Of a stretch of 64,000 bases of DNA, positions 2,758-60,799 are shown one piece after another (position 1 is the first letter of the stretch; every line of letters begins with the position of its first letter). The DNA is from an uncultured Gammaproteobacteria bacterium. Lineage in GTDB: Bacteria > Patescibacteriota > Patescibacteriia > UBA1558 > 2-01-FULL-52-15. The position numbers and the translations under genes were made by a program. Where the stretch lies: contig CAZIOU010000001.1 in the NCBI GenBank assembly GCA_964540995.1, forward strand, positions 103,407 to 167,406. The letters are read 5' to 3'. The notes below the pieces were generated by a model that made no database searches, was not told where the DNA came from, and saw only the letters and a program-made list of their open reading frames with translations.

Positions 2758-4411
2758 TACCAAATATATTTTTGTCGTTGGTGGAGTGATGTCGGGCGTC
2801 GGCAAAGGCGTGACGACTGCTTCCATCGCCAAGATTTTGCAGTCCAAAGGTTTTAGCGTCACTGCCATCAAGGTTGACCCTTATATCAATGTCGATGCCG
2901 GCACCATGAATCCCACCATTCATGGTGAAGTTTTTGTTACTATTGATGGTGACGAGACGGACCAAGATATCGGCAATTACGAACGCTTCCTCAACGTCGA
3001 TATCCCTCGGGCCAATTATATGACTACCGGCCGCGTCTATCTGTCGGTGATTCAGAAAGAACGTAACTTAGGCTATAACGGCGACAATGTTCAAGTGGTG
3101 CCGGATATTCCTAATGAAATTATTGCGCGTATCAAGCGAGCGTCTCGCCTAGCCAAGGCTGATTTCACCATCGTTGAGATTGGCGGCACCGTCGGCGAAT
3201 ATGAGAATCTGATTTTCCTCGAGGCAGCGCGAATGATGAAGCTCAAGACACCGCGTGATGTTTTGTTTGTCTTGGTTAGCTATTTACCGATCCCCGCCAA
3301 AGTCGGGGAGATGAAGACCAAACCGACGCAACACGCTTCACGCACTCTCAATAGCGCCGGCATCCAGGCGGACTTCATCGTCTGCCGGTCAGAGCATCCC
3401 CTAGACCGTAAGCGTCGAGAGAAGATCGCTACTTTCTGTAATGTGAATCCTGAAGATGCTATCTCGGCACCGGATGTAGAAAGTATCTATGATATTCCGG
3501 TTAATTTCGAGAAGAATGATCTGGGCAATAAGATTTTGGTCAAATTTGGTCTGAAACCTCGCAAGAAAGATATGCATGAGTGGCGAGCGATGGTAAGTAA
3601 ATTGAAAAGTTTGGCCAAGAATGCGAGCACCAAGAAAAGCGGCAAAGTCAAAGTTGGGGTGGTGGGGAAGTACTTCATGTCGGGTGATTATGTTTTGTCT
3701 GATGTCTATATTTCTGTTATTGAAGCGATCAAGCACGCCGGTGTAGCAGCAGGAGTGAAGCCAGAATTGATCTGGATCGATTCGGCTGATTTCGAGACAC
3801 CGCGCGCTTCGATGAAAGTATTGGATTCCGTCGATGCCATTATTGTCCCTGGTGGTTTTGGTAGCCGCGGTATCAAAGGTGTACTCAAAGCCATCGAATA
3901 TGCTCGGACTAAGAAGATTCCTTATCTGGGTTTGTGCTACGGTATGCAGCTAGCGACGATCGAATTCGCTCGTAATGTCGCTGGTATCAAGACCGCGGAA
4001 ACAGTGGAGATTGATCCCAAGACCAGAGATGCGGTGATTCATGTGAACGAGCAACAAGCCAAAAATATGGCAGAGAAAAATTTCGGCAATTCGATGCGTC
4101 TCGGAGGTTATACTTGTATTTTGAAAGAAGGTACGTTGGCTCGTAAGCTCTATGGTCAGCGCAAAATCGTCGAACGGCATCGCCATCGTTATGAATTTAA
4201 TAATCATTATCTGAAACCACTGGTCAAGGCCGGCTTGGTTTTCTCTGGTATTTGTCCCGATAATAATCTGGTAGAAGTGATTGAATTACCGACAAGCATT
4301 CATCCCTATTTCATCGCTACTCAATTCCATCCCGAATTACAATCCCGACCCTTACGACCACATCCCTTGTTCGTCGGGTTATTGCAGGCCGCCAAGAAAC
4401 GAGGTCATTAA
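2747..4411 (+). CDS. pyrG: CTP synthase
   Basis: TKYIFVVGGVMSGVGKGV N-terminal synthetase motif and C-terminal glutamine amidotransferase GLCYGMQ. Start at ATG 2747 (MAINTKYIF) preferred over 2729. Either start overlaps the rplI 3' end. Confidence 0.9.
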   Translation: MAINTKYIFVVGGVMSGVGKGVTTASIAKILQSKGFSVTAIKVDPYINVDAGTMNPTIHGEVFVTIDGDETDQDIGNYERFLNVDIPRANYMTTGRVYLSVIQKERNLGYNGDNVQVVPDIPNEIIARIKRASRLAKADFTIVEIGGTVGEYENLIFLEAARMMKLKTPRDVLFVLVSYLPIPAKVGEMKTKPTQHASRTLNSAGIQADFIVCRSEHPLDRKRREKIATFCNVNPEDAISAPDVESIYDIPVNFEKNDLGNKILVKFGLKPRKKDMHEWRAMVSKLKSLAKNASTKKSGKVKVGVVGKYFMSGDYVLSDVYISVIEAIKHAGVAAGVKPELIWIDSADFETPRASMKVLDSVDAIIVPGGFGSRGIKGVLKAIEYARTKKIPYLGLCYGMQLATIEFARNVAGIKTAETVEIDPKTRDAVIHVNEQQAKNMAEKNFGNSMRLGGYTCILKEGTLARKLYGQRKIVERHRHRYEFNNHYLKPLVKAGLVFSGICPDNNLVEVIELPTSIHPYFIATQFHPELQSRPLRPHPLFVGLLQAAKKRGH

Positions 4412-5079: not shown

Positions 5080-5122
5080 ATACACCCCGCGATCGAGCAC
5101 AGCTCGCCGCGGGGTGTTTTTT
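5080..5122. terminator. bidirectional hairpin terminator between convergent genes
   Basis: 9-bp stem caccccgcg/cgcggggtg (5083-5091 and 5108-5116) with an A-tract upstream and T6 downstream. Confidence 0.6.
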
Positions 5123-5480
5123 ATTCTTCACAGATGTCTAGCGTCTCGATCTGGAAACTGAGTTCATCCAGGATCAGAAGTTGCTCCGCCAGCTCCTTCA
5201 TGTGTGTAGTGAAGTGATGGCGGGTGAAGTCATCCAATGAGCCGTGAGTTTTGACGAACATACTGGCTTCGGCACGAACCAGATAACCGATCATAGACAG
5301 TCTATTCTTTTCCAATCGCTCACGCTCAGCATGTAATCTCAGATCATACCAACCGTTATTGTGAACGCGTCCAACTTCTTCCCACTGTATCATGTTGAAA
5401 GCGCCGACAGGATAGAAGAGTTTAAGCTTGGCAAATATTGCTGCTGCTTTGGGACTGAGGGTTTCGACGTCTCTGGCCAT
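5121..5480 (-). CDS. hypothetical protein
   Basis: 119-aa ORF with a perfect AAGGAGG Shine-Dalgarno 7 nt upstream of the ATG at 5480. Confidence 0.65.
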   Translation of the reverse strand: MARDVETLSPKAAAIFAKLKLFYPVGAFNMIQWEEVGRVHNNGWYDLRLHAERERLEKNRLSMIGYLVRAEASMFVKTHGSLDDFTRHHFTTHMKELAEQLLILDELSFQIETLDICEE

Positions 5481-5615
5481 GGGTGACCTCCTTGAGAGTT
5501 GATGCTGAGATAAGGGACAGTAAGCTGAGTCATTTAAACATAGCCACCATGTCTGGTCAATTCAATTGACAAAGACATAGAAACATATTACTTTATCTTG
5601 GTATTAATTATATAT

Positions 5616-5689
5616 TCGGGGATCGTCTAATGGTAGGACAGTGGCCTTTGAAGCCATCAATCATGGTTCGAATCCATGTCCCCGAGCCA
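5616..5689 (+). tRNA. tRNA-Gln (anticodon UUG), CCA encoded
   Basis: Cloverleaf with acceptor tcgggga/tccccga, D-stem gtc/gac, anticodon loop cTTTGaa and T-loop ttcgaatcc. Confidence 0.85.
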
Positions 5690-8788: not shown

Positions 8789-9160
8789 TTGGCTAATTGC
8801 ATTATGAATCAACTGACTTCCGAGGAGAAACACGTCATTATCGATAAAGGCACTGAAGCACCATTCGTGGGTGAATATGTGAATACCATGGACACTGGTA
8901 TCTATGTCTGTCGTCAGTGTGATACACCTTTGTATACTTCAGAATCCAAATTCCGCTCTGACTGCGGTTGGCCTAGCTTCGATCAAGAGATAGCAGGCGC
9001 CGTCATAAGTACGCCCGATGACGATGGTAGCCGTACCGAGATTACCTGCGCTCACTGTGGCGGACATCTAGGACATGTCTTCACTGGTGAACATCTGACG
9101 GACAAAAATACTCGTCACTGTGTCAATTCGCTGTCGCTCAAATTTATCCCTGGTAACTAA
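8789..9160 (+). CDS. msrB: peptide-methionine (R)-S-oxide reductase MsrB
   Basis: Two CxxC zinc sites (CRQCDTPL and [12 protein letters not shown]) and GWPSF. Confidence 0.85.
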
Positions 9161-9161
9161 T

Positions 9162-9659
9162 ATGATCAAACAAGCTGTATTAGCGGGCGGTTGTTTCTGG
9201 GGTATGCAAGATCTGATCCGTAAGCAACCCGGGGTTGTGGCGACACGTGTCGGGTATACCGGAGGATCGGTGGATAATCCTACCTATGAGAATCATACGG
9301 GTCATGCGGAAGCGGTGCAGATTGATTTTGATGACAGCCAGACTTCCTATCGCGATATTCTCGATTTCTTCTTTCAGATTCACAATCCGACGACGCTCAA
9401 TCAACAAGGCAATGATCGCGGCACAGCCTATCGCTCAGCTATCTTCTATGCTAACGATGAGGAGAAGCGGCAAGCTCAAGATTTCATCGACATTGTGAAC
9501 AGTTCTGGTCGCTGGCCCGATCCCGTGGTGACGACTTTGGAACCACTGAAGCAATTCTATCTGGCAGAGGATTATCATCAGGACTATCTGATCAAGAATC
9601 CTGACGGCTACACCTGTCATGTGCGTCGCTTCGGTTCCTATTTAGATAATCAAAAATAA
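9162..9659 (+). CDS. msrA: peptide-methionine (S)-S-oxide reductase MsrA
   Basis: [13 protein letters not shown] active-site motif. Start at ATG 9162, 1 nt after the msrB stop. Confidence 0.85.
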
Positions 9660-9660
9660 T

Positions 9661-10449
9661 ATGGATCAACCATTAGCCCCACAACCAACGCCAACCGTCA
9701 CTCCAAGTATTGCGCCTAGTCCGACCATAGCTTCTGTCGGAGCTGATCTCAAGAAGAAACAATGGCGTAACTTCACGATTTTTACCGTGACTTCTGTCAT
9801 CTTCTGGGCTCTCGAGTACGCTGCCCAATTTTACCTCTATAGCGTAGGGGATAGCGCTGGAGCCTGGGTAAGAAGCTTTGCTCTCACTGGTATGACGCTG
9901 TTCTCGCTGTCGCTCTTCAGCAGTACGATCTTCAAATGGTTTCCGCGCACAGCTCGATTATGGCGCTGGCGTCGGTGGCTGGGAGTTTCGGCCTTCATCT
10001 TCATCACCCTGCACATGCTGTCGGTTATCGCCTTGTTCTTCAATTTCAATTTGACCTATCTCTATTTCAGCTTTAATCCATTGGTCAATCTGATCATCCC
10101 TGGTACAGTGGCCTATATTATTCTACTAGTTATGGCTAGTATCTCGACTGATACTATGGTCAGCAAGATTAAACCCAAGAAGTGGAAGTTTATCCATCGT
10201 TTCGTTTACTTAGCCTTCATCGCTGCAATGTTACATTTCTTCTTCGTCCATCCGGTAGCCATCAAGAATGCACCTGGATATTTCTTGACGCTGATCGTCT
10301 TCGTCACGGTACTTAGCCAAGTCTATTGGTTTTTGCGAATTGCCGCTCGGAAGAAGTTTATGACTCGGGGAGCGTTGGTAGGATTTGGTCTGATTGCTTT
10401 GGCGATTATTAGTTTCTGGTTGACTAATCGGGCGCAGCAAGGGCAATAG
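9661..10449 (+). CDS. ferric-reductase-like transmembrane heme protein (MsrQ/YedZ-like) with Pro/Thr-rich N-terminus
   Basis: Six predicted helices with paired His motifs (WRRWLGVSAFIFITLHML and KKWKFIHRFVYLAFIAAMLHFF) matching the MsrQ pattern. Immediately follows msrA. Confidence 0.5.
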   Translation: MDQPLAPQPTPTVTPSIAPSPTIASVGADLKKKQWRNFTIFTVTSVIFWALEYAAQFYLYSVGDSAGAWVRSFALTGMTLFSLSLFSSTIFKWFPRTARLWRWRRWLGVSAFIFITLHMLSVIALFFNFNLTYLYFSFNPLVNLIIPGTVAYIILLVMASISTDTMVSKIKPKKWKFIHRFVYLAFIAAMLHFFFVHPVAIKNAPGYFLTLIVFVTVLSQVYWFLRIAARKKFMTRGALVGFGLIALAIISFWLTNRAQQGQ

Positions 10450-10533: not shown

Positions 10534-11523
10534 ATGAAGAAAATCATTCAAAAGAAGGGAAACGTTGTTATCTATCAGGCACCAAGCGGGGCAATTGAGC
10601 TTCGTGGGGATAACTCTAAAGAGACTATTTGGGCTACTCAGGCTCAAATGGCGGCTGTTTTTGGTGTCAATTCGCAAGCGATAACAAAACATATTCAAAA
10701 CATTTATAGACAAGGGGAATTAAGTCAGAAGGCAACTTGTTCCAAAATGGAACAAGTTCAAACTGAAGGAAATCGTAGCGTTAAACGTCAAGTCGAGCTG
10801 TACAATCTTGATGTCATCATCTCGGTCGGTTACCGAATTAGCTCGAAGACAGGCACTATGTTCCGCCAATGGGCAACCAAAACCTTACGCCAGCATATTA
10901 CCAAGGGCTATACGGTTAATCGTGTGCAATTGAGTAAGAATTACACTGCCTTTGCCGCAGCCATTAACGACATACGAACATTAATTCCAGCTCAAACAGC
11001 AGAGTTATCGCCACAGCATGTGCTCGATCTGATTACCGCTTTTGCCGACACCTGGTTCTCCTTAGACGCCTATGATAAAGGTCAGCTGAAACCAGCTAAA
11101 GTTACCAAGAAGAAAGTCTCTCTAACCTCGGATGATATTATCTTAGCTATTGACCAGCTCAAGCAGAGCTTGATCAAGCGGGGAGAGGCTACCGATATAT
11201 TTGCCCAGGAGCGAAGTACCGGGGCTATCCAAGGTATCATCGGTAATATAATGCAATCATTCGGCGGTAAGGAACTCTATCCCAGCTTGGAAGCTAAGGC
11301 GGCTCATCTGCTCTATTTCATCATTAAGAATCATCCATTCACCGACGGTAACAAACGTTCGGCTGCTTTTGCTTTCGTCTGGTTCTTACGCCGTGCTGGG
11401 TTACTCAACCTTGCCCGCCTGACTCCATCGGCCTTAACTTCATTGACACTACTCATAGCTGAAAGTAATCCTCGGGACAAAGAAAAGATGGTTCAATTGG
11501 TGGTGATGTTACTCGGACGATAG
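10534..11523 (+). CDS. RhuM-family protein fused to a C-terminal Fic/Doc domain
   Basis: N-terminal RhuM-like block (GNVVIYQ...IWATQAQMAAVFGV...YNLDVIISVGYRISSKTGTMFRQWATKTL) and C-terminal Doc-type motif HPFTDGNKR. Confidence 0.75.
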   Translation: MKKIIQKKGNVVIYQAPSGAIELRGDNSKETIWATQAQMAAVFGVNSQAITKHIQNIYRQGELSQKATCSKMEQVQTEGNRSVKRQVELYNLDVIISVGYRISSKTGTMFRQWATKTLRQHITKGYTVNRVQLSKNYTAFAAAINDIRTLIPAQTAELSPQHVLDLITAFADTWFSLDAYDKGQLKPAKVTKKKVSLTSDDIILAIDQLKQSLIKRGEATDIFAQERSTGAIQGIIGNIMQSFGGKELYPSLEAKAAHLLYFIIKNHPFTDGNKRSAAFAFVWFLRRAGLLNLARLTPSALTSLTLLIAESNPRDKEKMVQLVVMLLGR

Positions 11524-11537
11524 TATAAAAATATATT

Positions 11538-11588
11538 ATAAAACCCGCGCGTTCTCACCAAGTTGGTGATACTAGCGCGGGTTTTCTC
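11538..11588. terminator. bidirectional hairpin terminator
   Basis: aaacccgcgc ... gcgcgggttt 10-bp stem with A/T-rich flanks, between convergent genes. Confidence 0.6.
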
Positions 11589-11593
11589 GTTAT

Positions 11594-12439
11594 TTACTTT
11601 TTCAGTAGGTCGTAAACCAGCATCATAGCTGCTCCGCTATACAGCAGACCGATGTACAGCCAGCTCACGCCCTTGATCTCGCCGCTGTTCATGGCTTGAG
11701 GGCTGTAGCTGCCGTTGGGATCGTCGTGGGTAGCCTGTTTGGTCAGCCCCAGAACAGTCAGTGTCATGGGAATCATCATGTCGACATAGACAAACATGAG
11801 TAATACCATGAATGCCGGTAGCGCTGCTCGTTTCAGGTGGCGAGCGATGGTCAGATCCTGGTCTTCGGGGATGCTGTTGAACAGTAGCTTGCAGAAGCGA
11901 CCGCCATCCAATGGACCGACAGGAATGAGATTCCAGACGATCATGCTGCCGTTGATCATGGCTATGAATCGCGTCGTGTCGCTATCCAGTACGCCGCAGA
12001 AGTACAGCAGCACACTGATCATCGCAATCAGAGCGTTGACACAGACACCGGCGAGCGTGATAGTGCTTTGCTTACGCCAGCTCAATGTCGACATCTTCTC
12101 GAAGCTGGTGAAAGCGCCGCCCATCACAATCAGCAGTAGGATTCTGGCCCGCAGACCGTACCGCTCCATGAAGAAGGCGTGGCCCAGTTCATGACCCAGG
12201 ACCGAGATGACGGTGATCGTCGTCAACAGTCCGATGTCGATATGACTGACACGACTGTGACTGAAAATCTGGGTATAGAGCCAGAACAGCGCCAGCCAGG
12301 TGACGAAGCTGGAGGCGATCATCAGGAACAGATCAAAGATACGAGACAGGGCGTTTTTCACGACTGGTCTCCTTATGGGGGTTGGTGAAGCCCGAAGTGG
12401 GCGAAAAAAAGGACTAGAGTTAATTTCAGATATTAACAT
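11594..12439 (-). CDS. M50 (site-2 protease) family membrane zinc metalloprotease
   Basis: HELGHAFF zinc-binding motif in a helix plus NLIPVGPLDGGRF (the second S2P signature). Multi-pass membrane protein. Start codon uncertain. Confidence 0.65.
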   Translation of the reverse strand: MLISEINSSPFFRPLRASPTPIRRPVVKNALSRIFDLFLMIASSFVTWLALFWLYTQIFSHSRVSHIDIGLLTTITVISVLGHELGHAFFMERYGLRARILLLIVMGGAFTSFEKMSTLSWRKQSTITLAGVCVNALIAMISVLLYFCGVLDSDTTRFIAMINGSMIVWNLIPVGPLDGGRFCKLLFNSIPEDQDLTIARHLKRAALPAFMVLLMFVYVDMMIPMTLTVLGLTKQATHDDPNGSYSPQAMNSGEIKGVSWLYIGLLYSGAAMMLVYDLLKK

Positions 12440-12497
12440 ATTAAATCATTTTTGTCAATGTCAGCCCTTAAACTCCGAATGTGGGCCTATGAGCTAA

Positions 12498-12552
12498 TGT
12501 AAAAAGCGCGTCGAGCTGCTTGTCCACCTCTGGTGGAAGCTCGACGCGCCTA
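12498..12552 (-). terminator. Rho-independent terminator after the 134-aa secreted-protein gene
   Basis: 11-bp stem gcgcgtcgagc/gctcgacgcgc (12506-12516 and 12539-12549) followed on the minus strand by TTTTT. Confidence 0.6.
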
Positions 12553-12579
12553 TTTGTTTTGCCTTGTGTCGTAATGACA

Positions 12580-12984
12580 CTACTTTGGCGGAGCGAACTT
12601 GGCTTTGATTTCGCTCCAGGTTGAAGACTGAACTGCAGTCGGACCAGTCGGGAGAAATCCGACACTTTGCCAACTTCGATAGTTCGGGCTCCACCAGCCT
12701 TCTCCGGCATCAGTGATTGCACAAAGCCCGTTGAAGAAGACCAAATTGGAGACCTGCACCGGAGGCCGTTCTTCAATTGCCCCAATCTGCCACGAACCGT
12801 GCCCAACCTCAACGTAATAGATGTTTTCGCCGACTGCCACCAGAAGACTGTTTCCGCTACTTCCGAGCACTCGGAAGCCTGTCATGCCTTGCGCCCCAGC
12901 CGTACCCTGACCGATATGAAATCCGATCAGCGTGGCAAGTGCCAGACAAAACACACCAACAGACAGATACATGAACCGTTTCAT
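12580..12984 (-). CDS. small secreted protein with a shared C-terminal tail motif
   Basis: Strong SD (AAAGGAGG, 5-nt spacer). N-terminal signal/TM segment. Ends ...GPTAVQSSTWSEIKAKFAPPK*. Confidence 0.65.
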   Translation of the reverse strand: MKRFMYLSVGVFCLALATLIGFHIGQGTAGAQGMTGFRVLGSSGNSLLVAVGENIYYVEVGHGSWQIGAIEERPPVQVSNLVFFNGLCAITDAGEGWWSPNYRSWQSVGFLPTGPTAVQSSTWSEIKAKFAPPK

Positions 12985-13038
12985 TCTCGCCTCCTTTGTC
13001 CAGCGCCTTCCAGAATACCTTCTGGGATGGTGCTGGAC

Positions 13039-14181
13039 TTAGCGATACTGAGCCTTGATGGCTGACCAGGTGGTTGGTTGGACCGCGGTTGGAGTTACGC
13101 ATCCGGGCTGTGTGTACGCTCCCATCGGACCGCAGTCTTGATGTAACGCAGGAGACACATCCCGGAGACTGTAGTCGCCATGTACTGAATCGCAGAACAT
13201 GGGATCGACTGAGATATTGTTGCCATCAGGGGTGTCGTTCGGAAAGTCCGAACAGTTTGCAGACACGCCGCCAATATCAATCAATATGTCCGGGCTACCT
13301 ATGTTGCCCCAGACAATACAATGGTCGAGACTAAAATTTGCCTCATGACCATTGATTCCCGAGCCAGACTGGATGAGAGGTGAGACGTTACCAGCAATCG
13401 TGGTATTAACCAGCACGGCCGGGCCATAAGATCTGGCCAGCCCAACTGCTCCGTTTCCGGTGATAGCGGTACTGGTAATTGCCAGTGTCCCGCCATTACG
13501 TGCCCAGATGGTTGCAACGTCAGTGCTTGGTGTTGTGTTGTTCGTGATGGTACACCGTTCCACAGTTGTTGTTGAATTGGAAAGCAAGAGTACCAAGGCC
13601 GGACCAGCGCACTGATTGTTCCGTATGATTGTATCCCACATGAACACCGATCCGGTATTCTGAGATACGATCAGCGCACGTTCCGATATGTCCACCGTGT
13701 TGTTCTCGATGAGAGAATTACGTATGTAGATCTTGCTATTACTGAAGGGACCTACATACACAATGCCATTACGGCACTCCCTAATAACGCAGTTGATGAT
13801 TGCAGACTCATAGCCTACGTTATTCAGAAAAACACCGTAAGTCCCATCTCCCATCTCACTGTTGAATCTCGTCAACGTCACGCCGACTAGGTCGAAACCT
13901 TGATGGGAAATGACTGCCCGAGCTGCACGGTTCTCGCCATCGATAATGACATCTGAAGGGTTTCCTGATTCGGAGGCGAGTTGAATTGGATGCCACACGT
14001 CAAGATTGATATTACGATCTCCGGTGTAGGTGCCCGGGGCAATCAGGACGGTGTCTGCGTAGACGGATGCATCTAAAGCATCCTGAATCGTGGGGTACTC
14101 GTACGGCACATGAAGAGTAGTTGCCGAGACATTAGCTGCGCAACAAAGCGCAATCAAAATGACAAAGAACAGAGCTTTCAT
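13039..14181 (-). CDS. secreted right-handed parallel beta-helix repeat protein with a shared C-terminal tail motif
   Basis: Signal peptide MKALFFVILIALCCAANVSA. Repeated xNNxxIxxN rungs (IRNSLIENNTV, IIRNNQCAG, CTITNNTT, TAITGNGAVG, TTIAGNVSP). Ends ...TPTAVQPTTWSAIKAQYR*. SD GGAGGG. Confidence 0.75.
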   Translation of the reverse strand: MKALFFVILIALCCAANVSATTLHVPYEYPTIQDALDASVYADTVLIAPGTYTGDRNINLDVWHPIQLASESGNPSDVIIDGENRAARAVISHQGFDLVGVTLTRFNSEMGDGTYGVFLNNVGYESAIINCVIRECRNGIVYVGPFSNSKIYIRNSLIENNTVDISERALIVSQNTGSVFMWDTIIRNNQCAGPALVLLLSNSTTTVERCTITNNTTPSTDVATIWARNGGTLAITSTAITGNGAVGLARSYGPAVLVNTTIAGNVSPLIQSGSGINGHEANFSLDHCIVWGNIGSPDILIDIGGVSANCSDFPNDTPDGNNISVDPMFCDSVHGDYSLRDVSPALHQDCGPMGAYTQPGCVTPTAVQPTTWSAIKAQYR

Positions 14182-14432
14182 AATTCCCTCCAGAAATTCT
14201 GACCGCGCACAATGCGTAGGCAGGAAGCTGGAGGGGAAGAGAATATCGTAGCTTTAGCAGAAATAAGGGGTTTTGTCTACAATATTCAGCTAGTCAAAAG
14301 ATTGCAAAATTTGGCTAAAAATGGGATGATGGGAGCAGATTTATTATAATTTGACAGAGTTCGAATCGTACTATCTCTGCCAGATTGGCAACTTTGAACC
14401 CAAGCAAAATAAGGGCAATCTAAGCATAAAAC

Positions 14433-15701
14433 GTGGACAAGAAAAAACTCAAGAAAATATTGAATGAAACCAAAGCTTGGGCAAATCAGTCTGATAGTCT
14501 TGTCGCCGTTCAAAAAACAGGAGGTGGATTAGAAAAGAAAGTTCAAATAGAACTGGGGTGGAAAGGAGGTCGTGTTGTCTATGACCGCACAAGAGGGTAC
14601 AAGGTACAAGTAGATGCCGCATATCCAAACACAAACAATCCAGAGGTGATCATGTCGGTTACCTACACCGACCCAGATTTAAGAGGTCATAGTAATGAAA
14701 ACAAGCTACACCTAAAAGTCGGTGAACTTGCCCTTCTAAAATTTGCATACCCAAGTATCAAAGTCGTTTTGGTGCTTGGCGGCAATCAGGAAGCATGGCT
14801 CCCTTATGTTCTTAAAGCGTTTGAGCATTTCTTTGATGAAGTAATTTGTTTGTGGAGAAAAGATGGCTCAGAACGCTTACTATCCATTAAGAAGAGTCAT
14901 GAGTCAGTCAAACAAAGACATGTTGAATTCTGGAAACAAATAACCACTGAATGGGGCAGGATTAAGTTTTATTCGGATAAAGATTTTACTATTCCACATA
15001 GTCTATTTAGGTATAAAACACTGGATGATTTTAAGTCTCAAAAACCAAAAGTTTTTCATCCTTCGTTAATTAGGAATGAGGTTGCTCGTCTTTGCATGCA
15101 AAGATCAAAGGATTATAGCGGGGCTGAATGGGACTCGTATCTAAAAAATCGGTGGCAAAACATCGAAATGTCTCGAAATTATTTTAACCCAATGGAATCA
15201 TTGATTGAAATTTTGCTGACAGATTCAAAGTTGAAATTTGAAGGTGGTGTCGCTCGAGATATTCAAGTTCCATCATTCCTCCATCAGCTCGGATTAAAAG
15301 GAACTCGCGTATCAGAAGATTTTGTCTTGTTCTCCAAAAAACTTAACAAAAAAGTATATATTCAATGTAAGTCATCTGGTGGAGGAAGAGATCAACATGG
15401 TAAAAATATTCAAAATCGAACAAAAGAGCAGATCACTCGTAGTATTTTGTATAGGAGTTCACTCAAAGACGGGGAAATGTATCTGGATGAGAAGAAATTT
15501 TACTGGATCTCTATTTTAGATGGCAATTGGTCTGTCAACAGTCGAGAGTCATTCAAATATATCCATATGTTACAAATAGCAGGATACGACAAGATCTATG
15601 GCGCACAAAACTTAATACTTGAGGACGATTTAACCCCAATGAAAAAGAATAACCCCTTACTTAATCACCTTATAAATGATCTTGATTGCGAATCAATTTA
15701 A
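14433..15701 (+). CDS. hypothetical protein, candidate restriction endonuclease partner of the adjacent methyltransferase
   Basis: 422-aa low-GC ORF with GTG start, convergent with and overlapping by 4 nt the stop of the MTase gene. No motif recognised. Confidence 0.5.
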   Translation: MDKKKLKKILNETKAWANQSDSLVAVQKTGGGLEKKVQIELGWKGGRVVYDRTRGYKVQVDAAYPNTNNPEVIMSVTYTDPDLRGHSNENKLHLKVGELALLKFAYPSIKVVLVLGGNQEAWLPYVLKAFEHFFDEVICLWRKDGSERLLSIKKSHESVKQRHVEFWKQITTEWGRIKFYSDKDFTIPHSLFRYKTLDDFKSQKPKVFHPSLIRNEVARLCMQRSKDYSGAEWDSYLKNRWQNIEMSRNYFNPMESLIEILLTDSKLKFEGGVARDIQVPSFLHQLGLKGTRVSEDFVLFSKKLNKKVYIQCKSSGGGRDQHGKNIQNRTKEQITRSILYRSSLKDGEMYLDEKKFYWISILDGNWSVNSRESFKYIHMLQIAGYDKIYGAQNLILEDDLTPMKKNNPLLNHLINDLDCESI

Positions 15702-18700
15702 GGCTTCTTAAATATCACAACAGATTCTCTGACTGGAATCTTACCAAACTGTTTCATCTGCTGAGGGCTATTTCCTTTCATCCTAGTAACGAAAATCTTC
15801 TCTGCTTTGAAACCCTGCTTTTCCGCGAGAAGTAAAAGTAAATGGTCAACAGGTACTACAACACCGCCCCATCTAGAATTTCCAACTACGAAGGCCGCTC
15901 TCCCTCCTCTTCGCATTACGTCAAATAAATTTACCAAGTTCTGTTCGAGATCGAAAAAATAACCAGCAATCATTTGAGGTATTTTACCGTTATTGCCGTC
16001 AGTCAATTCCATTGCAGAGATAATTTTTTGAACTTCAGGAAGTGCCTCGGAAATATTCAAGTCCAAATCGCTATCAGTGTGTGATCTAAAGGTGGATCTA
16101 ACAAGTTTCTTATACTCAACTCGATTCTTTACAAGTGACAATAAAGATAGTTCTGCTTTTTGTTGGGCAATGTAATTATTCCTATTTAAATAGGGTGGTG
16201 AAGTTATTACAAAATCAATAGAGTTTTTTTCTAGTTTAAATGTCATCGCATCTCCTAATAATATTTGATGTCGAGAATTATGTTTCTTTGAGACTTTTGC
16301 AGTAATCTCTATGTCCTCGATCATTTTATTAATTTGCTTCTTGAATATTGGAAGGATGTCTGACTCCGGGTTTAAGATCTTTATATTCAACTTCTGAAGT
16401 CCAATACTATCTGGATTAAGCATGTAGCGATAATGCGAGCCATGTTTCCTAATCTGACTGATATCCTCTAGGATGCCAACTAGTCCAAGGACTAGGAGGT
16501 CTTTTTCTTGTTGGGAGAGTGTTGAATTACTAATTTCATTTTTAATCATTTTGACTTGTTCCCAGATTTGTAAGGAGAACGCCTTACTGAGGAATTCTGG
16601 AAAAACATCCTCGTTTTTCAATGATTTTTTTTCAACTTTTAATTTAGATAAGAAATCATTTATTTTTTTAAAACTTTTTATATCAAGAGAAGATACTTTA
16701 ATCTTACTGACCCATATCATTAAAGGAGATATATCAAATGATATAGTATTAATGCCTCTTTTTTTGCTTGTAAGTATGGTAGTTCCTGAACCTACGAATG
16801 GATCAAGAATGACGGCATCACTATTTTTTTCTACGCCCAGATACTCTATAAGAAAATCAACTAAAGGTTCGGAATACCCTTGTGTAAATGGGAACCATCG
16901 ATGAACAGGAAGTTTTTTATTTATTTGAAAAGTGACAGATCTGCGTAATTCCGGTTTATCTTCCTGTAGGTTTTGATATTTCTTAATATTGATAGGGACG
17001 AATTTTTGAAGCAGTTCACTATTGTCAATTACTCGTTCTCTCTTCTCCTCTTTTGAGTTATTTTTACTTGGTAACGACCTTTTGTGACAATTTATAATGT
17101 GGTCTTTTATAAATTGATGTTCAGTAGGAGAAAGTTTGAAGGCTAGGGCAACGGCATTGTCCAATGAGATCCAACTTTTTTGATGTTCCGGGTTTTTATA
17201 TAATTCATCGACAATCTTCCGAGCAAAAATGTTTTGCTTCTCATCAAATTTTGGTAGACGGATTGATTGTAGATGGTGTTTTAATAACCTAAACCATCCA
17301 CTATGGAGTTGCGTTCCACTGTGCCGAAGAATAAATTCCATTACAGGGGTACTTAACACCGCACTCCAGAATTTTAGGTCTGCTTCACTCATCGATCTAT
17401 TGACGAATGCGTAGCCAGATCCGATTGCAACATCACCAATAGTATCCGCAGCGAATTGAGAAGAGGGCATCATTTCTTTTACTAAGATTTTTGGTGTGTG
17501 GGGTAGGTGTAAATTCTGAACTCGACTAAATGCATACCAAGAGCTATTTTTATCAAGATCTCTGTCGGAAAGTGATTGTTTATTAGATAATAAGTATGTG
17601 TATGTATTAGGTGCATTAGTTTTAAGATCATTCTCTTCCACAATGCTAACCTTACCGCTTAAAGAAACCTCGTATGGGTAAATTAGCCTATATTTCTCTC
17701 TAGATATAACGAGTCTCTTTATTTCCTCTCCACCTACGAATGGCCTTAGAAAAGATTCCTCCAGGTTCGCCCCAATTTCTTTTTTTAGTACAAAGATATC
17801 ATTTTGGCCTGTACGAAGACCTTGGAGAATATTTGGAAATATATGACCAATAAGAGGATGGCTGGGATCGTTTAATTTCTGAATAATACTCTGAGCTTCG
17901 TCCGTCGCTAAATTCCATGGAAACTTTTCTAAAATGTTAGTATTTAAACTAAAGGTTTGTGATTTATTTAGGTCGCCAGCAGATACTATTCCAGTTGGGA
18001 AATGGGTGACTGTAAATTTCTTTGCGGCTGGAAGTTTTGTAAAAGTAATAACCGTTGTGTAAGTTGTATGATCAGGAAAAACTTGAGAATCTTTAAAATC
18101 AATTATGTTGAGCACTCTCACATCTTTTGCCAATCGATTGCACATATTCTTTCCATACTCGGAATGCATGAACTTACTAGTGGTGATGTAACAGCAGATT
18201 CCACCCTCCGTAAGACTTCTTATGGCGTGCTCAATAAATATTATTGATAGATCAAAATTGCCAGAGGTAATGTCTGGATATCTTTCTTTTATTGATCGAG
18301 TGTAATGTTTTGGAAGGTTTTGTGACCTAACGTAAGGCGGATTTCCGATTAATATATCAAATTTCTCGTTCTCTAATTCAGAGGAAAACAAGGAGTTGTT
18401 TTGTAAGGCGAGTAAAGAGTCCTTGTGTTCAATTTTAGCTTCCAATCCAAGTGTCTCGTTCAATATTTTTGCAAATATAAGTGATGTTTCGTCTGTATCG
18501 TTTCCATAAAGTGATACCTCGCTACCAAAAAATTCTCTAGCACTAGATAAAAAGACGCCAGTACCACAAGAAATATCCCCAACTCTTTGAACCTTTCTTC
18601 CTGTCCTGTGTAATTTATTCCAGTGTTGCCATGCTGTTTGAGTAACCTTATCCGCTAACCATTTTTGAGTAAATACTGCACCAGAATTTTTCTGATCCTC

Positions 18701-18955
18701 ATCAGATAATATTGAGGTCCGCAATGATGCGAGTGCATCTTCAATATCGATTTGGGTGTTACTAATTGAACTCGGGGAAGCGTCTGAATTTTTTCGGGTA
18801 AGATATTCTATTTGTTTATGTATATTAGGCAGCAGATCAAATTTCTCATTCTTGGCAAGAATCAACAGTGCTCGAGTCAAGGCTTCATTTTTTGAAGAAA
18901 ATTTAGAGGATCGGGGAGTAGTATTAGAGATGTCATGTTTTGATAGAATTTGCAT
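15698..18955 (-). CDS. fused two-domain N6-adenine DNA methyltransferase (type IIS/IIG-like) with a central TaqI-C-like target-recognition region
   Basis: First module has motif I DISCGTGVFL and motif IV GNPPYV. A TRD-like region follows (LRTGQNDIFVL...IYPY...WYAFSRVQ). The second module has DPFVGSGTT and SPPYLNRNNY. No nuclease domain recognised. Confidence 0.8.
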   Translation of the reverse strand: MQILSKHDISNTTPRSSKFSSKNEALTRALLILAKNEKFDLLPNIHKQIEYLTRKNSDASPSSISNTQIDIEDALASLRTSILSDEDQKNSGAVFTQKWLADKVTQTAWQHWNKLHRTGRKVQRVGDISCGTGVFLSSAREFFGSEVSLYGNDTDETSLIFAKILNETLGLEAKIEHKDSLLALQNNSLFSSELENEKFDILIGNPPYVRSQNLPKHYTRSIKERYPDITSGNFDLSIIFIEHAIRSLTEGGICCYITTSKFMHSEYGKNMCNRLAKDVRVLNIIDFKDSQVFPDHTTYTTVITFTKLPAAKKFTVTHFPTGIVSAGDLNKSQTFSLNTNILEKFPWNLATDEAQSIIQKLNDPSHPLIGHIFPNILQGLRTGQNDIFVLKKEIGANLEESFLRPFVGGEEIKRLVISREKYRLIYPYEVSLSGKVSIVEENDLKTNAPNTYTYLLSNKQSLSDRDLDKNSSWYAFSRVQNLHLPHTPKILVKEMMPSSQFAADTIGDVAIGSGYAFVNRSMSEADLKFWSAVLSTPVMEFILRHSGTQLHSGWFRLLKHHLQSIRLPKFDEKQNIFARKIVDELYKNPEHQKSWISLDNAVALAFKLSPTEHQFIKDHIINCHKRSLPSKNNSKEEKRERVIDNSELLQKFVPINIKKYQNLQEDKPELRRSVTFQINKKLPVHRWFPFTQGYSEPLVDFLIEYLGVEKNSDAVILDPFVGSGTTILTSKKRGINTISFDISPLMIWVSKIKVSSLDIKSFKKINDFLSKLKVEKKSLKNEDVFPEFLSKAFSLQIWEQVKMIKNEISNSTLSQQEKDLLVLGLVGILEDISQIRKHGSHYRYMLNPDSIGLQKLNIKILNPESDILPIFKKQINKMIEDIEITAKVSKKHNSRHQILLGDAMTFKLEKNSIDFVITSPPYLNRNNYIAQQKAELSLLSLVKNRVEYKKLVRSTFRSHTDSDLDLNISEALPEVQKIISAMELTDGNNGKIPQMIAGYFFDLEQNLVNLFDVMRRGGRAAFVVGNSRWGGVVVPVDHLLLLLAEKQGFKAEKIFVTRMKGNSPQQMKQFGKIPVRESVVIFKKP

Positions 18956-19292
18956 GATTGAATTATAGTACTTTTACCACGTTCGTGTAAACACGGATGT
19001 GTGGATAGTTTTCTACTACCCTATTTAAATCGAGTATTCGACTGCGGTCTGCCCCTTATCGGATTTTGGTCTCGGCACCTCAAACCATTCGAGGTAAACC
19101 TTGTAGATTGCCCTCAATTCGCGTATTATTTTATCAAGATACTCGGATTTAAGCGCTTTTTAGGTTAAAAGTTCCTAGATAGCGCCCCCGCCAGATTTCC
19201 GACTTTGACCTGAGGTAAAACTGCTGGCAATTTTAGTTATCAGAATAAGCGAAAGTTGCTCTCCTGATCATTTCATGATCTAATACCTGTAT

Positions 19293-48430: not shown

Positions 48431-48914
48431 GGCTTTCTGCGGTTTGACGATCGCCGTTGCGCTTTCCCAAGAGTTTGCTAAAACTCTAGTGATATCTTGA
48501 GAAAGCGCAAAGGAGGAAAGTCCGAACACCGCAAAAAATGGTAGTTGCTAACGCCAACCCCCGATCATAGACGCTTGCGTCTTGAACGGGAGGACAAGTG
48601 CAACAGAAAGTAAACCGCCTACCTTCGCTCACTGTAAGTGAGTTCGGCGGCAGCCTCAATCAAGGGGCTTGCCCGCCGTAGCTCGCTTTTGGCGAGCGAA
48701 GGTGGGTAAGGGTGAAACCGTGAGGTAAGAGCTCACGCGTCTCTGTGGTGACACAGGGAATGAGGTAAACTCTACCTGGTGCAAGGCCAAGTTGTTCCCG
48801 CCAACGGCGGGACGGGTAGGCTGCTTGATTCCAGTGGCGACACTGGAACTAGAGAGATGATCGTCGCTCCGTCTTTGATGGAGAACAGAATTCGGCTTAT
48901 ATGCCGCAGAAAGC
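48431..48914 (+). ncRNA. rnpB: RNase P RNA (bacterial type A) with extended P3 and P12
   Basis: P1 gctttctgcgg/ccgcagaaagc and conserved blocks AGGAAAGTCCG, GTGCAACAGAAAGTAAACCGCC, GGTAAGGGTGAAA, GGTAAGAGC, GGTAAACTC, GCAAGGCCAA, GGGTAGGCTGCTTGA and CAGAATTCGGCTTAT. Confidence 0.8.
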
Positions 48915-50306
48915 ATGAAACGTTTTGATTTTGTCTTCACTATTCTTCAGGTACCGCTCGACTATTTGATGTTAGTCGTAGCTGGCTTAGCAAGTTATTC
49001 TTTGCGTTATCAAGGACTGGTCACACAGGTGAGGCCGGTTTTTTTTGATGTTGGCTACAGTGATTTCGTTCACCTCTTATTTGGAGTAGCTCTGGTTGGT
49101 ATATTGGTATTTGCTTGGAGTGGATTGTACCGTTCGGAACGAGTGCTGCACTCAGCGGATGAATTTCGAAAAATATTTCTAGCTGTCTCGACTACGCTTC
49201 TAATTGTTGTCATCGCTATTTTCTTACGTCGTGAACTGTTTTCTTCTCGCTTTATTATATTGCTAGCTTGGATCTTCGCAGTCATATTTATCTATACTGG
49301 TCGCGTAGCTCTGCGCTACCTAAAAGGAATGATCCTCAGCCATAGCTCTTGGGGTTATTCGATCGCGCTGATTGGCAACGGTGAATCAGTCAAGATTATC
49401 CAGCAGTATTATCATCATAAGAAACATCTGGGCTATCATGTACAAGCAGTGGTACCGGACTTTTCATTAGCTTCTCGCGATCAACTAGGGGCTCTGGCTC
49501 GTGAGGACAAGCTTGATGAGTTGGTGCAATTACGAACCGACTTCGATGAGGCACAAACCGAAGAAGTTATTACTTTCTGCAATACGCATCAAGTTAACTT
49601 GCTGTACCTCGCTAGTTTCGTTCAGACGCAACTTATTAACTACGAAGCTATCAATATTGCCGGCTATCCCATTATTCGGGTCAAACGAACTCCTCTTGAT
49701 GGCTGGGGTAGAATCGGCAAACGGCTGTTTGATTTGGTGGTAGCAGCTTTTGCTCTTATTATCTTGTCACCACTATTTCTGATCGTGACGGTGATTGTTC
49801 GACTTGATTCCCGCGGGCCAATACTGTTCTCCGCCATGCGCGTCGGTCAGAAAGGTAAGATTTTTAAACTCTACAAGTTTCGCTCCATGATCGTTGGCGC
49901 TGATAAGATGAAGCAGGAGTTGGCAGCTTTCAACGAACGAGCTGACGGGCCTCTTTTTAAAATGACTCATGATCCACGTATTACCAAGGCCGGCCGCTGG
50001 TTGCGTCGTAGTAGTCTGGACGAATTGCCGCAGCTGTGGAACGTGCTGATTGGCGACATGAGTTTGGTCGGTCCGCGCCCGCACGAACCAGAGGAGGTGT
50101 CTCGCTATACCAGCCAATACCGTAAGTTGCTGACCATCAAGCCGGGCATCACGGGCGCGGCTCAAGTTTCTGGGCGTTCGACTCTAACCTTTGACGAAGA
50201 GGCGCGTTTAGATATTTATTATATTGAAAATTGGTCGCTGTGGCAGGATATACGTATCTTAGCCAAGACTCCGGCGGCTCTGATTAACTACCGAAACGCT
50301 TCCTAA
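48915..50306 (+). CDS. polyprenyl-phosphate sugar phosphotransferase (bacterial sugar transferase family)
   Basis: C-terminal catalytic domain (LFDLVVAAFALIILSPLFL, KFRSM, DELPQLWNVLIGDMSLVGPRP). ATG is the first nucleotide after the rnpB P1 3' strand. Confidence 0.8.
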   Translation: MKRFDFVFTILQVPLDYLMLVVAGLASYSLRYQGLVTQVRPVFFDVGYSDFVHLLFGVALVGILVFAWSGLYRSERVLHSADEFRKIFLAVSTTLLIVVIAIFLRRELFSSRFIILLAWIFAVIFIYTGRVALRYLKGMILSHSSWGYSIALIGNGESVKIIQQYYHHKKHLGYHVQAVVPDFSLASRDQLGALAREDKLDELVQLRTDFDEAQTEEVITFCNTHQVNLLYLASFVQTQLINYEAINIAGYPIIRVKRTPLDGWGRIGKRLFDLVVAAFALIILSPLFLIVTVIVRLDSRGPILFSAMRVGQKGKIFKLYKFRSMIVGADKMKQELAAFNERADGPLFKMTHDPRITKAGRWLRRSSLDELPQLWNVLIGDMSLVGPRPHEPEEVSRYTSQYRKLLTIKPGITGAAQVSGRSTLTFDEEARLDIYYIENWSLWQDIRILAKTPAALINYRNAS

Positions 50307-60723: not shown

Positions 60724-60799
60724 TGGAGCCGATGGTCGGAATCGAACCGACGACCTCTGCTTTACGAAAGCATTGCTCTACCAGCTGAGCTACATCGGC
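60724..60799 (-). tRNA. tRNA-Thr (anticodon CGU), CCA encoded
   Basis: Reverse complement GCCGATGTAGCTCAGCTGGTAGAGCAATGCTTTCGTAAAGCAGAGGTCGTCGGTTCGATTCCGACCATCGGCTCCA folds as a cloverleaf with anticodon loop ttCGTaa. Confidence 0.85.

Follow-up and report, generated by a model that had tools for sequence, protein, structure and literature searches.

Short C-terminal sorting tags on exported proteins have repeatedly led to the enzymes of envelope biogenesis, namely the sortases, exosortases, archaeosortases, rhombosortases and myxosortases. In each of the corresponding systems (LPXTG/sortase, PEP-CTERM/exosortase, GlyGly-CTERM/rhombosortase, PGF-CTERM/archaeosortase and MYXO-CTERM/myxosortase) a short module lies at the C-terminus of proteins that have signal peptides and otherwise unrelated bodies. 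The same appears to be true of the tail described here, which ends the products of two adjacent genes of an uncultured bacterium placed in the Patescibacteriota by GTDB, with closest relatives that are named Candidatus Komeilibacteria. They lie in a stretch of 64 000 nucleotides of contig CAZIOU010000001.1 (assembly GCA_964540995.1, positions 103 407 to 167 406), the whole of which we call the window. One gene encodes a 380-aa β-helix protein and the other a 134-aa protein, p134; the gene that follows encodes a membrane metalloprotease of the M50 or site-2 protease (S2P) family. The original prediction was that tail and protease form a sorting module. We find the tail to be a genuine C-terminal tag, maintained by selection and carried by apparently secreted proteins whose folds are unrelated. 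It is very probably a real and widespread module, and with equal confidence we conclude that the M50 is not its dedicated enzyme.

Comparison of the two proteins by BLASTP aligns the tail alone, with 11 of 16 residues identical (E 4e-5), so that the common ending noticed on first reading is indeed there; none of the six frames of the window has another copy of the motif. In these two proteins the tag is about 17–20 residues long; its core, [ST][ST]-W-[GS]-x-I-K-A-x-[YF]-[RK], lies at the extreme C-terminus and is preceded by a proline-rich linker. The two coding sequences differ at many synonymous sites, and even the serine that follows the tryptophan is encoded as TCA in one and AGC in the other. 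Therefore it is the peptide that has been conserved, and a recent duplication of DNA is ruled out as the source of the common tail. Orthologues of the β-helix protein share 63% (P0002, from Candidatus Komeilibacteria), 51% (P0003) and 41% (P0004) identity with it. In the orthologues from the candidate phyla radiation (CPR) the tail is almost unchanged while the body has diverged, and the homologues of p134 behave likewise. The same ending is present in β-helix proteins as distant as 25–30% identity (...TSWGRIKAQYR, ...TTWGKLKAQYR and ...TSWGKVKAMYRN), and on one metagenomic contig three consecutive β-helix genes each end in ...WGx[IL]KAxYR followed by the stop codon.

How general is the tag? 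In a collection of species-representative genomes the DNA pattern W-G-x-I-K-A-x-Y-R-stop is found in at least 120 stretches, where about 26 matches would be expected by chance in the whole collection, on a rough estimate that assumes uniform composition. A profile of the tail with 20 positions and no positional constraint, used in an exhaustive search of 1.84 billion proteins, matched 260 cluster representatives at E ≤ 1e-3. The tail is thus not confined to two local paralogues. Neither is it the start of a longer domain that has been truncated in the window, the other possibility that the original prediction had raised. Among the 141 core-containing profile matches listed, the core lies at the C-terminus in 89 and no more than 5 residues from the end in 129. 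Relaxed motifs from outside the pattern selection (n = 38) agree with this; the stop codon comes directly after in 26 of them, and within 1–3 residues in 9 more.

From 161 unique tails we derive the consensus P(-8) [VTS] P V E x [ST] [ST] W G x I K A [LM] Y R, in which the frequencies are partly biased by the criteria used to collect the tails. About half of these tails have a cysteine located 9–11 residues before the tryptophan, and this probably marks the end of the folded body. The AlphaFold2 model of the window β-helix protein has the tail as a detached short helix (residues 371–379) lying outside the fold, with a predicted local distance difference test (pLDDT) score of 55–65. In the model of p134, which is of low confidence overall (pLDDT 48), the core of the tag is also drawn as a short helix.

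Several proteins depart from the arrangement of a single terminal copy. The lipoprotein-like P0048 (272 aa) ends in four tandem copies of the tag, and the internally duplicated P0057 (398 aa) has one after each half; internal tags are therefore possible where domains have been duplicated. A 925-aa protein (P0095), which from its sequence alone we read as a phage tape-measure protein, contains a fivefold internal repeat GWSALKALYRWSPLG resembling the core. This is probably convergence or chance, and not a C-terminal tag. A scan of 2.9 million viral contigs gave 3 matches, of which 2 are plausible tags. In these two high-GC contigs classified as viral (L131 at 3152–3181 and L132 at 214–243), small proteins end in ...TWGGIKAFYR and ...TWGSIKAFYR, respectively, directly before the stop codon, and the L131 protein has an N-terminus like that of a signal peptide.

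Eisenbacteria, Latescibacterota, Krumholzibacteriota, Gemmatimonadota and related uncultured lineages are rich in the tag family, which also occurs in Komeilibacteria-like CPR. Among 80 listed loci with the DNA pattern, about 23 belong to Candidatus Eisenbacteria (including Effluviviaceae), 7 to Latescibacterota, 2 each to Krumholzibacteriota and Gemmatimonadota, and 1 to Coatesbacteria. By a crude rule, 105 of the 128 complete carriers have a signal-peptide-like N-terminus. Their bodies are mutually unrelated. In Pfam they match Beta_helix (20 of 127), NosD, Chlamydia-PMP repeats, InhA-like MAM, pectate lyase, NHL and other propellers, PD40 and FG-GAP, and in NCBIfam they match choice-of-anchor J, V and W, together with relatives of PEP-CTERM, MYXO-CTERM and rhombosortase-dependent proteins. 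Bodies of these same kinds bear C-terminal sorting signals elsewhere. No Pfam or NCBIfam model is common to the 127 carriers, and none falls on the window tails; therefore the tag is unmodelled in both databases. In the source annotations the carriers are ‘hypothetical’ or ‘beta-helix repeat-containing’. Full-text searches of the literature, including those for sorting signals of Eisenbacteria and for type IX secretion (the T9SS) in candidate phyla of the Fibrobacteres–Chlorobi–Bacteroidetes (FCB) group, found no published description of the tag, and it is apparently undescribed.

What stands in place of the tag on related proteins is informative. Around 28 of the 31 untagged paralogues of the largest carrier family, encoded at the same loci, end in a T9SS-type domain of the FlgD_ig/Por_Secre_tail kind, and other β-helix homologues (P0006, P0009 and P0013) have dockerin-like repeats at the C-terminus. 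The tag therefore behaves as a C-terminal module that can be exchanged for others, in the place where homologues bear domains for sorting or anchoring.

The genes of the window are three consecutive minus-strand genes, as was originally described. The features of the locus are the following.

13039–14181, minus strand: large tagged cargo, the 380-aa putatively secreted β-helix protein (open reading frame, PF13229, AlphaFold2 model, orthologues)
14122–14181, minus strand: putative signal peptide of the β-helix protein, MKALFFVILIALCCAANVSA (by inspection; AlphaFold2 helix at residues 2–15)
13042–13092, minus strand: C-terminal tag of the β-helix protein, PTAVQPTTWSAIKAQYR, with the stop codon directly after it (tag-profile match)
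12985–13038, minus strand: spacer of the tagged pair, 54 nt, with a hairpin that has no U-tract and the ribosome-binding site AAAGGAGG (fold; −24.5 kcal/mol, z −4.4)
12580–12984, minus strand: small tagged protein p134, 134 aa (open reading frame; homologues P0045, P0046 and P0047)
12892–12984, minus strand: hydrophobic segment at the N-terminus of p134, MKRFMYLSVGVFCLALATLIGFHIGQGTAGA, putatively a signal peptide or anchor (alignment; AlphaFold2 helix at residues 2–26)
12583–12642, minus strand: C-terminal tag of p134, PTAVQSSTWSEIKAKFAPPK (sequence, BLASTP)
12506–12549, minus strand: intrinsic-terminator hairpin and U-tract after p134 (fold)
12430–12458, minus strand: promoter-like element of the M50 gene, TTGACA-17-TAATAT with TG (sequence; conserved in L126/L127)
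11594–12361, minus strand: M50/S2P-family membrane metalloprotease, 255 aa from GTG 12361 (PF02163, motifs, starts of homologues)
11541–11584, both strands: bidirectional terminator hairpin of the convergent M50 and RhuM/Fic genes (fold)

The 380-aa protein is a right-handed parallel β-helix, as had been read from the sequence, both by family (PF13229 Beta_helix, 32.7 bits with a cut-off of 25.9) and by fold, the AlphaFold2 model being an all-β coiled β-helix with a pLDDT of 89.5. With Foldseek this model gives only generic β-helix matches, to PL6 lyases, alginate epimerases, pectate lyase and tailspikes. Scans of Pfam, NCBIfam, PADLOC and PHROGs gave no family match for p134, and PADLOC and PHROGs none for any of the three genes. 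By inspection the N-termini of both tagged proteins look like signal peptides, MKALFFVILIALCCAANVSA being followed by T, and MKRFMYLSV...GTAGA by QG. The long invariant hydrophobic segment of p134 could, from its sequence, instead be a signal anchor.

In the CPR the conserved unit is a gene for a large, tagged and apparently secreted protein, with a small tagged gene of the p134 family directly after it. The pair comprises the β-helix protein and p134 in the window, β-helix proteins and small proteins of 109 and 132 aa in L002 and L128, respectively, and an NHL propeller with a 128-aa protein in L129. In L002, L128 and L129 the stop codon of the big gene overlaps the ribosome-binding site of the small gene, and because of this the tagged pair is probably co-transcribed. 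The homologues P0045, P0046 and P0047 share 42–49% identity with p134, and in each case a large tagged gene lies immediately upstream. NHL proteins and p134-like genes are arranged in this way in L056 also, from a high-GC metagenome-assembled genome (MAG) outside the CPR; there, a related N-terminus of the p134 type adjoins a sigma-54 activator. In L128 the tails of the adjacent β-helix and small genes (5097–5168 and 5506–5577) have about 40 identical nucleotides, which suggests that the two tag-coding ends have undergone local gene conversion.

Within the p134 family the N-terminal 31 residues (MKRFMYLSV..CLALATLIGFHIGQGTAGA) are nearly invariant, and the body is about 45% identical. Across the tagged loci a hidden Markov model (HMM) of this segment has matches in the CPR loci and L056 only, and the segment is thereby ruled out as a universal partner of the tag. 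On this distribution p134 is a lineage-restricted companion, rather than a general reader of the tag.

The third gene encodes a bona fide M50 protease. PF02163 (Peptidase_M50) matches the open reading frame as first read (11594–12439, 281 aa) with E 2.6e-13 and 50.3 bits, well above the gathering cut-off of 27.2, and the protein has the motifs HELGH and NLIPVGPLDGG, that is the HExxH and NxxPxxxLDG types. A Pfam scan found neither PDZ nor CBS domains in it. The family assignment of the original prediction is thus secure, while the 281-aa extent should probably be revised. The protein most likely starts at GTG 12361, as do its homologues, and has 255 aa; the alternative ATG 12439 lies upstream of the −10 box of a promoter-like element.

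The M50 gene is set apart from p134 by this element (TTGACA-17-TAATAT) and by the strong terminator at 12506–12549, a hairpin of −34.2 kcal/mol (z −7.8) followed by UUUUU, which is predicted to end the transcription unit of the tagged genes. Two related loci define the boundary further. L126 and L127 retain the promoter, 5′-untranslated region, ribosome-binding site and GTG start of the window M50, and the sequence they have in common with the window ends precisely at the −35 box, with unrelated sequence upstream; neither the hairpin nor the 3′ end of p134 is found upstream of the M50 in either locus. Base composition also separates the genes, the GC content at third codon positions (GC3) being 0.68 in the M50 and 0.53–0.55 in the two tagged genes. 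The block of three genes had been described as GC-rich and bounded by hairpins. It is indeed the top 2-kb GC bin of the window (0.52, with a mean of 0.454 and standard deviation of 0.031), but it contrasts strongly with the right flank alone (0.31–0.39) and only modestly with the left (0.42–0.50). Both hairpins fold, yet that at 12506–12549 lies inside the block, in the interval between the p134 stop codon and the M50.

Is the M50 found with the tag elsewhere? Around 164 tagged genes (124 loci, 839 kb in total) we found zero M50, using tblastn with the window protein and the signature HExxH...NxxPxxxLDG, which detected all 12 of the M50s used as controls (4 close and 8 distant). The subfamily is very small. 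In a search of 5.8 billion proteins it has three known members, namely that of the window, P0034 (about 90–93% identity) and P0035 (53%, Komeilibacteria), and the next match has 33% identity over half the length. These three members contrast with at least 260 tagged clusters. In the closest CPR relatives the tagged pair and the M50 are found apart, L002 and L128 having the pair but no M50, and L125 and L126/L127 an M50 but no pair. In the Komeilibacteria MAG GCA_043801745.1 a tagged β-helix gene (L001), a tagged NHL gene with its p134 homologue (L129) and the M50 orthologue (L125) lie on three contigs.

The adjacency in the window can be compared with other loci by reference to a syntenic anchor, an MsrQ-like ferric-reductase gene (9661–10449 in the window) that is common to L002, L126 and L128. 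From this anchor to the tagged pair the gene content differs from locus to locus. The intervening genes are the M50 and RhuM/Fic in the window, the M50 and Bro-N in L126, small open reading frames with Bro-N and a hydrolase in L002, and two small open reading frames in L128, neither of the last two having an M50. Thus the M50 forms a transcription unit of its own, within a stretch that is variable and resembles a defence island, and the tagged genes do not have it as a conserved neighbour. A lack of association in other genomes, which we observe here, is an outcome that the original prediction had named as counting against it. It is speculation that the M50 might act upon the N-terminal hydrophobic segment of p134, an idea for which a single adjacency is the support.

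What, then, might the tag do? We propose that, once a protein has been exported by Sec, the tag would act as a short linear peptide for recognition. It would be bound by a conserved partner encoded elsewhere in the genome, and this binding would keep the protein at the cell envelope, attach it there or sort it further, in a role parallel to that of the T9SS C-terminal domains (CTDs), dockerins and PEP-CTERM-type signals on homologous proteins. In the CPR, p134 would be co-expressed with the large tagged protein and serve as its membrane-proximal companion, with an N-terminal hydrophobic segment at one end and the tag at the other. Recognition by a protein is suggested because the residues are so strictly conserved across phyla. 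By analogy with the homologues, we regard partner-mediated sorting or retention as a plausible mechanism, though one to which we give somewhat less than even weight. The whole explanation, combining a real and widespread tag, an unlinked M50 and a partner-mediated mechanism, we favour slightly on balance, as a compromise among its parts. More tentatively, the tail may be a new class of prokaryotic sorting or surface-attachment signal that has no transmembrane segment, is common to tiny-genome CPR and FCB-type phyla, and is read by machinery yet to be discovered, of which the p134 family may be a CPR-specific component.

A number of points weigh against this proposal. Clustering of neighbouring genes revealed no recurrent partner, with no untagged family present in more than 3 of the 124 loci. 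The families that reach three loci (radical SAM, spermidine-synthase-like, response regulator, TonB-dependent receptor, sigma-54 activator and tricorn-like S41) were considered as the partner and rejected. The function proposed for the tag is drawn from its position and from analogy with homologues, and the conformation of the tail is predicted at low confidence (pLDDT 50–65). A single common mechanism is not obvious for a tag found in both CPR and FCB-type phyla; CPR bacteria are expected to lack both an outer membrane and a T9SS. The genes of many sorting enzymes lie apart from those of their cargo, and non-adjacency is therefore compatible with an unlinked enzyme of the M50 superfamily. Lastly, the incompleteness of MAGs weakens any statement that a gene is absent from a genome.

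The alternatives differ in what would read the tag. In that closest to the original prediction, the adjacent M50/S2P would be a dedicated enzyme that recognizes and processes it, as in an exosortase/PEP-CTERM module. In the window the M50 lies beside the tagged genes and on their strand, tagged proteins as well as an M50 orthologue are encoded by GCA_043801745.1, and the M50 has a weak similarity to M50-like proteases that mature ribosomally synthesized and post-translationally modified peptides, far below the curated cut-offs. Set against this are the lack of any M50 in the 839 kb surveyed, the disparity between three members and at least 260 clusters, the occurrence of the pair and the M50 each without the other, and the terminator, promoter and difference in GC3 that lie between them. 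Moreover, S2P enzymes cut inside membrane-spanning segments, and the tagged proteins have no such segment at the C-terminus. We therefore consider this model highly improbable. The tag might, alternatively, need no partner at all, if it formed an amphipathic aromatic and basic helix by which exported proteins would stick to the outer face of the membrane or to an anionic wall polymer. Some penicillin-binding proteins have C-terminal amphipathic anchors, and an anchor of this kind would work in CPR and diderm lineages alike and is consistent with the lack of a recurrent partner gene nearby. W, I, L and Y would fall on one face of the helix with K and R alongside, and AlphaFold2 draws a short helix in both window proteins, albeit at low confidence. 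For the core we computed a hydrophobic moment of 0.53, within the range for two amphipathic membrane-binding peptides, labelled as the E. coli MinD membrane-targeting sequence and the PBP5 C-terminus; yet shuffled sequences score no worse, and helix and strand periodicity give equal values. Nine residues would be very short for a stable anchor, and the W, G, I, K, Y and R of the core and the PV-VE of the linker are more strictly conserved across phyla than is usual for lipid-binding helices, with the proviso that these figures are partly biased by the collection. On this evidence an anchor of this kind seems unlikely.

Two further readings would connect the tag with known machinery. In FCB-type phyla it could be a minimal type IX secretion signal that mimics the last strand of the CTD, in which case the CPR copies would have been acquired horizontally and be used differently or not at all. 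MAGs that are rich in the tag hold many cargo proteins with FlgD_ig/Por_Secre_tail domains, in the same loci and with paralogous bodies, and both kinds of terminus have hydrophobic residues followed by K or R (...KMVLLK compared with ...KALYR). A short signal has some precedent in Hbp35 of P. gingivalis, where, in that part of PMC11969387 that cites earlier mutagenesis, the last 22 residues alone are given as absolutely required for secretion and attachment of GFP. The shortest described CTDs, from Prevotella intermedia, are nevertheless 43–55 aa long, with motifs B, D and E retained (PMC11969387). At about 17–20 aa, and with no match to the CTD models of Pfam or NCBIfam, the tag is ruled out as a ‘short CTD’ by length and motifs on the basis of that same comparison. 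It is also under purifying selection in CPR genomes, and the presence of full CTDs and the tag side by side suggests that they lead to different destinations. We find a type IX signal of this sort quite unlikely. In the other reading the tag would be a processing or quality-control signal, a removable pro-peptide or degron, read by a PDZ-containing S41 protease of the Ctp or tricorn-like type. The strong preference of the tag for the extreme C-terminus would suit such a signal, and tricorn-like PD40-PDZ-S41 proteases adjoin tagged genes in L029, L106 (1163–4432) and L113. However, three loci of 124 is no enrichment. Canonical PDZ recognition needs a hydrophobic C-terminal residue, and the tag ends in Arg or Lys and tolerates 1–5 extra residues. 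The exchange of the tag with sorting and anchoring domains in homologues points to localization rather than turnover. We consider a processing signal very unlikely.

The surroundings of the tagged genes deserve some comment. Beyond the M50 on the left lies a gene for a RhuM-family and Fic/Doc fusion (10534–11523, plus strand), which matches the PADLOC candidate PDC-S23 with E 5e-115, and also a phage Doc-like toxin in PHROGs. It is convergent with the M50 gene, and the bidirectional terminator common to both (11541–11584) folds equally well on each strand, with energies of −27.2 and −26.6 kcal/mol (z about −6). The AT-rich right flank (14300–19000, GC 0.31–0.39) contains a 422-aa open reading frame (14433–15701) that has no family match, and a 1085-aa protein (15698–18955) that carries two methyltransferase modules of the type II/IIG kind; this flank has probably come in by horizontal transfer, as a cassette for restriction-modification or defence. 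With the PDC-S23 match on one side and the double methyltransferase on the other, the flanks of the tagged genes look like a defence or mobile island.

Further out, the MsrQ-like gene forms part of a cluster with MsrB and MsrA (8789–10449, plus strand). The window also contains a bacterial class A RNase P RNA (48435–48915, plus strand; 243 bits), which is 481 nt in length compared with a model of 367 positions and therefore carries insertions, and genes for tRNA-Gln(TTG) (5616–5689, plus strand) and tRNA-Thr(CGT) (60724–60799, minus strand).

Our analysis corrects a tempting inference, that the adjacent M50 is the sorting enzyme, and leaves the tag itself as the object of interest. It marks hundreds of apparently secreted proteins of adhesin-, lyase- and propeller-like character, in phyla with few or no cultured members. 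A model of the tag would improve how surface proteomes are annotated in Eisenbacteria, Latescibacterota, Krumholzibacteriota, Gemmatimonadota and some CPR, and the CPR genomes of about 1 Mb that have the tag offer a small search space for its reader. The tag is thus a lead toward a new pathway of envelope sorting or attachment in largely uncultured phyla.

Its architecture, with no membrane anchor, fits none of the described systems. The sortase-type systems with which we began resemble it further in having several tag copies per genome, often in tandem arrays, and in their carrier bodies, which include choice-of-anchor proteins and relatives of PEP-CTERM, MYXO-CTERM and rhombosortase cargo. 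The tag differs from all five in that it has neither a transmembrane helix nor a basic cluster, the protein ending 0–5 residues after the nine-residue core, and in that no processing enzyme, whether co-located or co-distributed, and no NCBIfam match were found for it. The original prediction was thus correct in setting the tail apart from the LPXTG, PEP-CTERM, GlyGly-CTERM and PGF-CTERM anchors; the tail has no transmembrane segment, and no Pfam or NCBIfam model covers it. In contrast, the likeness to regulated intramembrane proteolysis by M50 site-2 proteases extends to the neighbouring enzyme, with its HExxH and NxxPxxxLDG motifs, and no further; the tagged proteins lack a C-terminal membrane segment, the M50 lacks PDZ and CBS domains, and its gene is unlinked to the tag outside the window.

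The T9SS CTDs (Por_Secre_tail PF18962, TIGR04183 and the FlgD_ig type) come closer in context, being an alternative ending in the same MAGs and the same loci, and likewise hydrophobic and then basic. The tag has 17–20 aa compared with 43–100 aa, however, with no β-sandwich, no motifs B or D and no Pfam match, and it is conserved in CPR genomes; genuine CTDs were readily detected on the untagged paralogues by the same tool that found none on the tags. With dockerins it shares a slot, that occupied by dockerin-like repeats on P0006, P0009 and P0013, and plausibly a mode of non-covalent docking, but it has no likeness to them in sequence or length, no calcium-binding repeats and no known cohesin-like receptor. 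The tag can therefore be likened to each of these C-terminal sorting and anchoring signals in one respect or another, yet it belongs to none of them.

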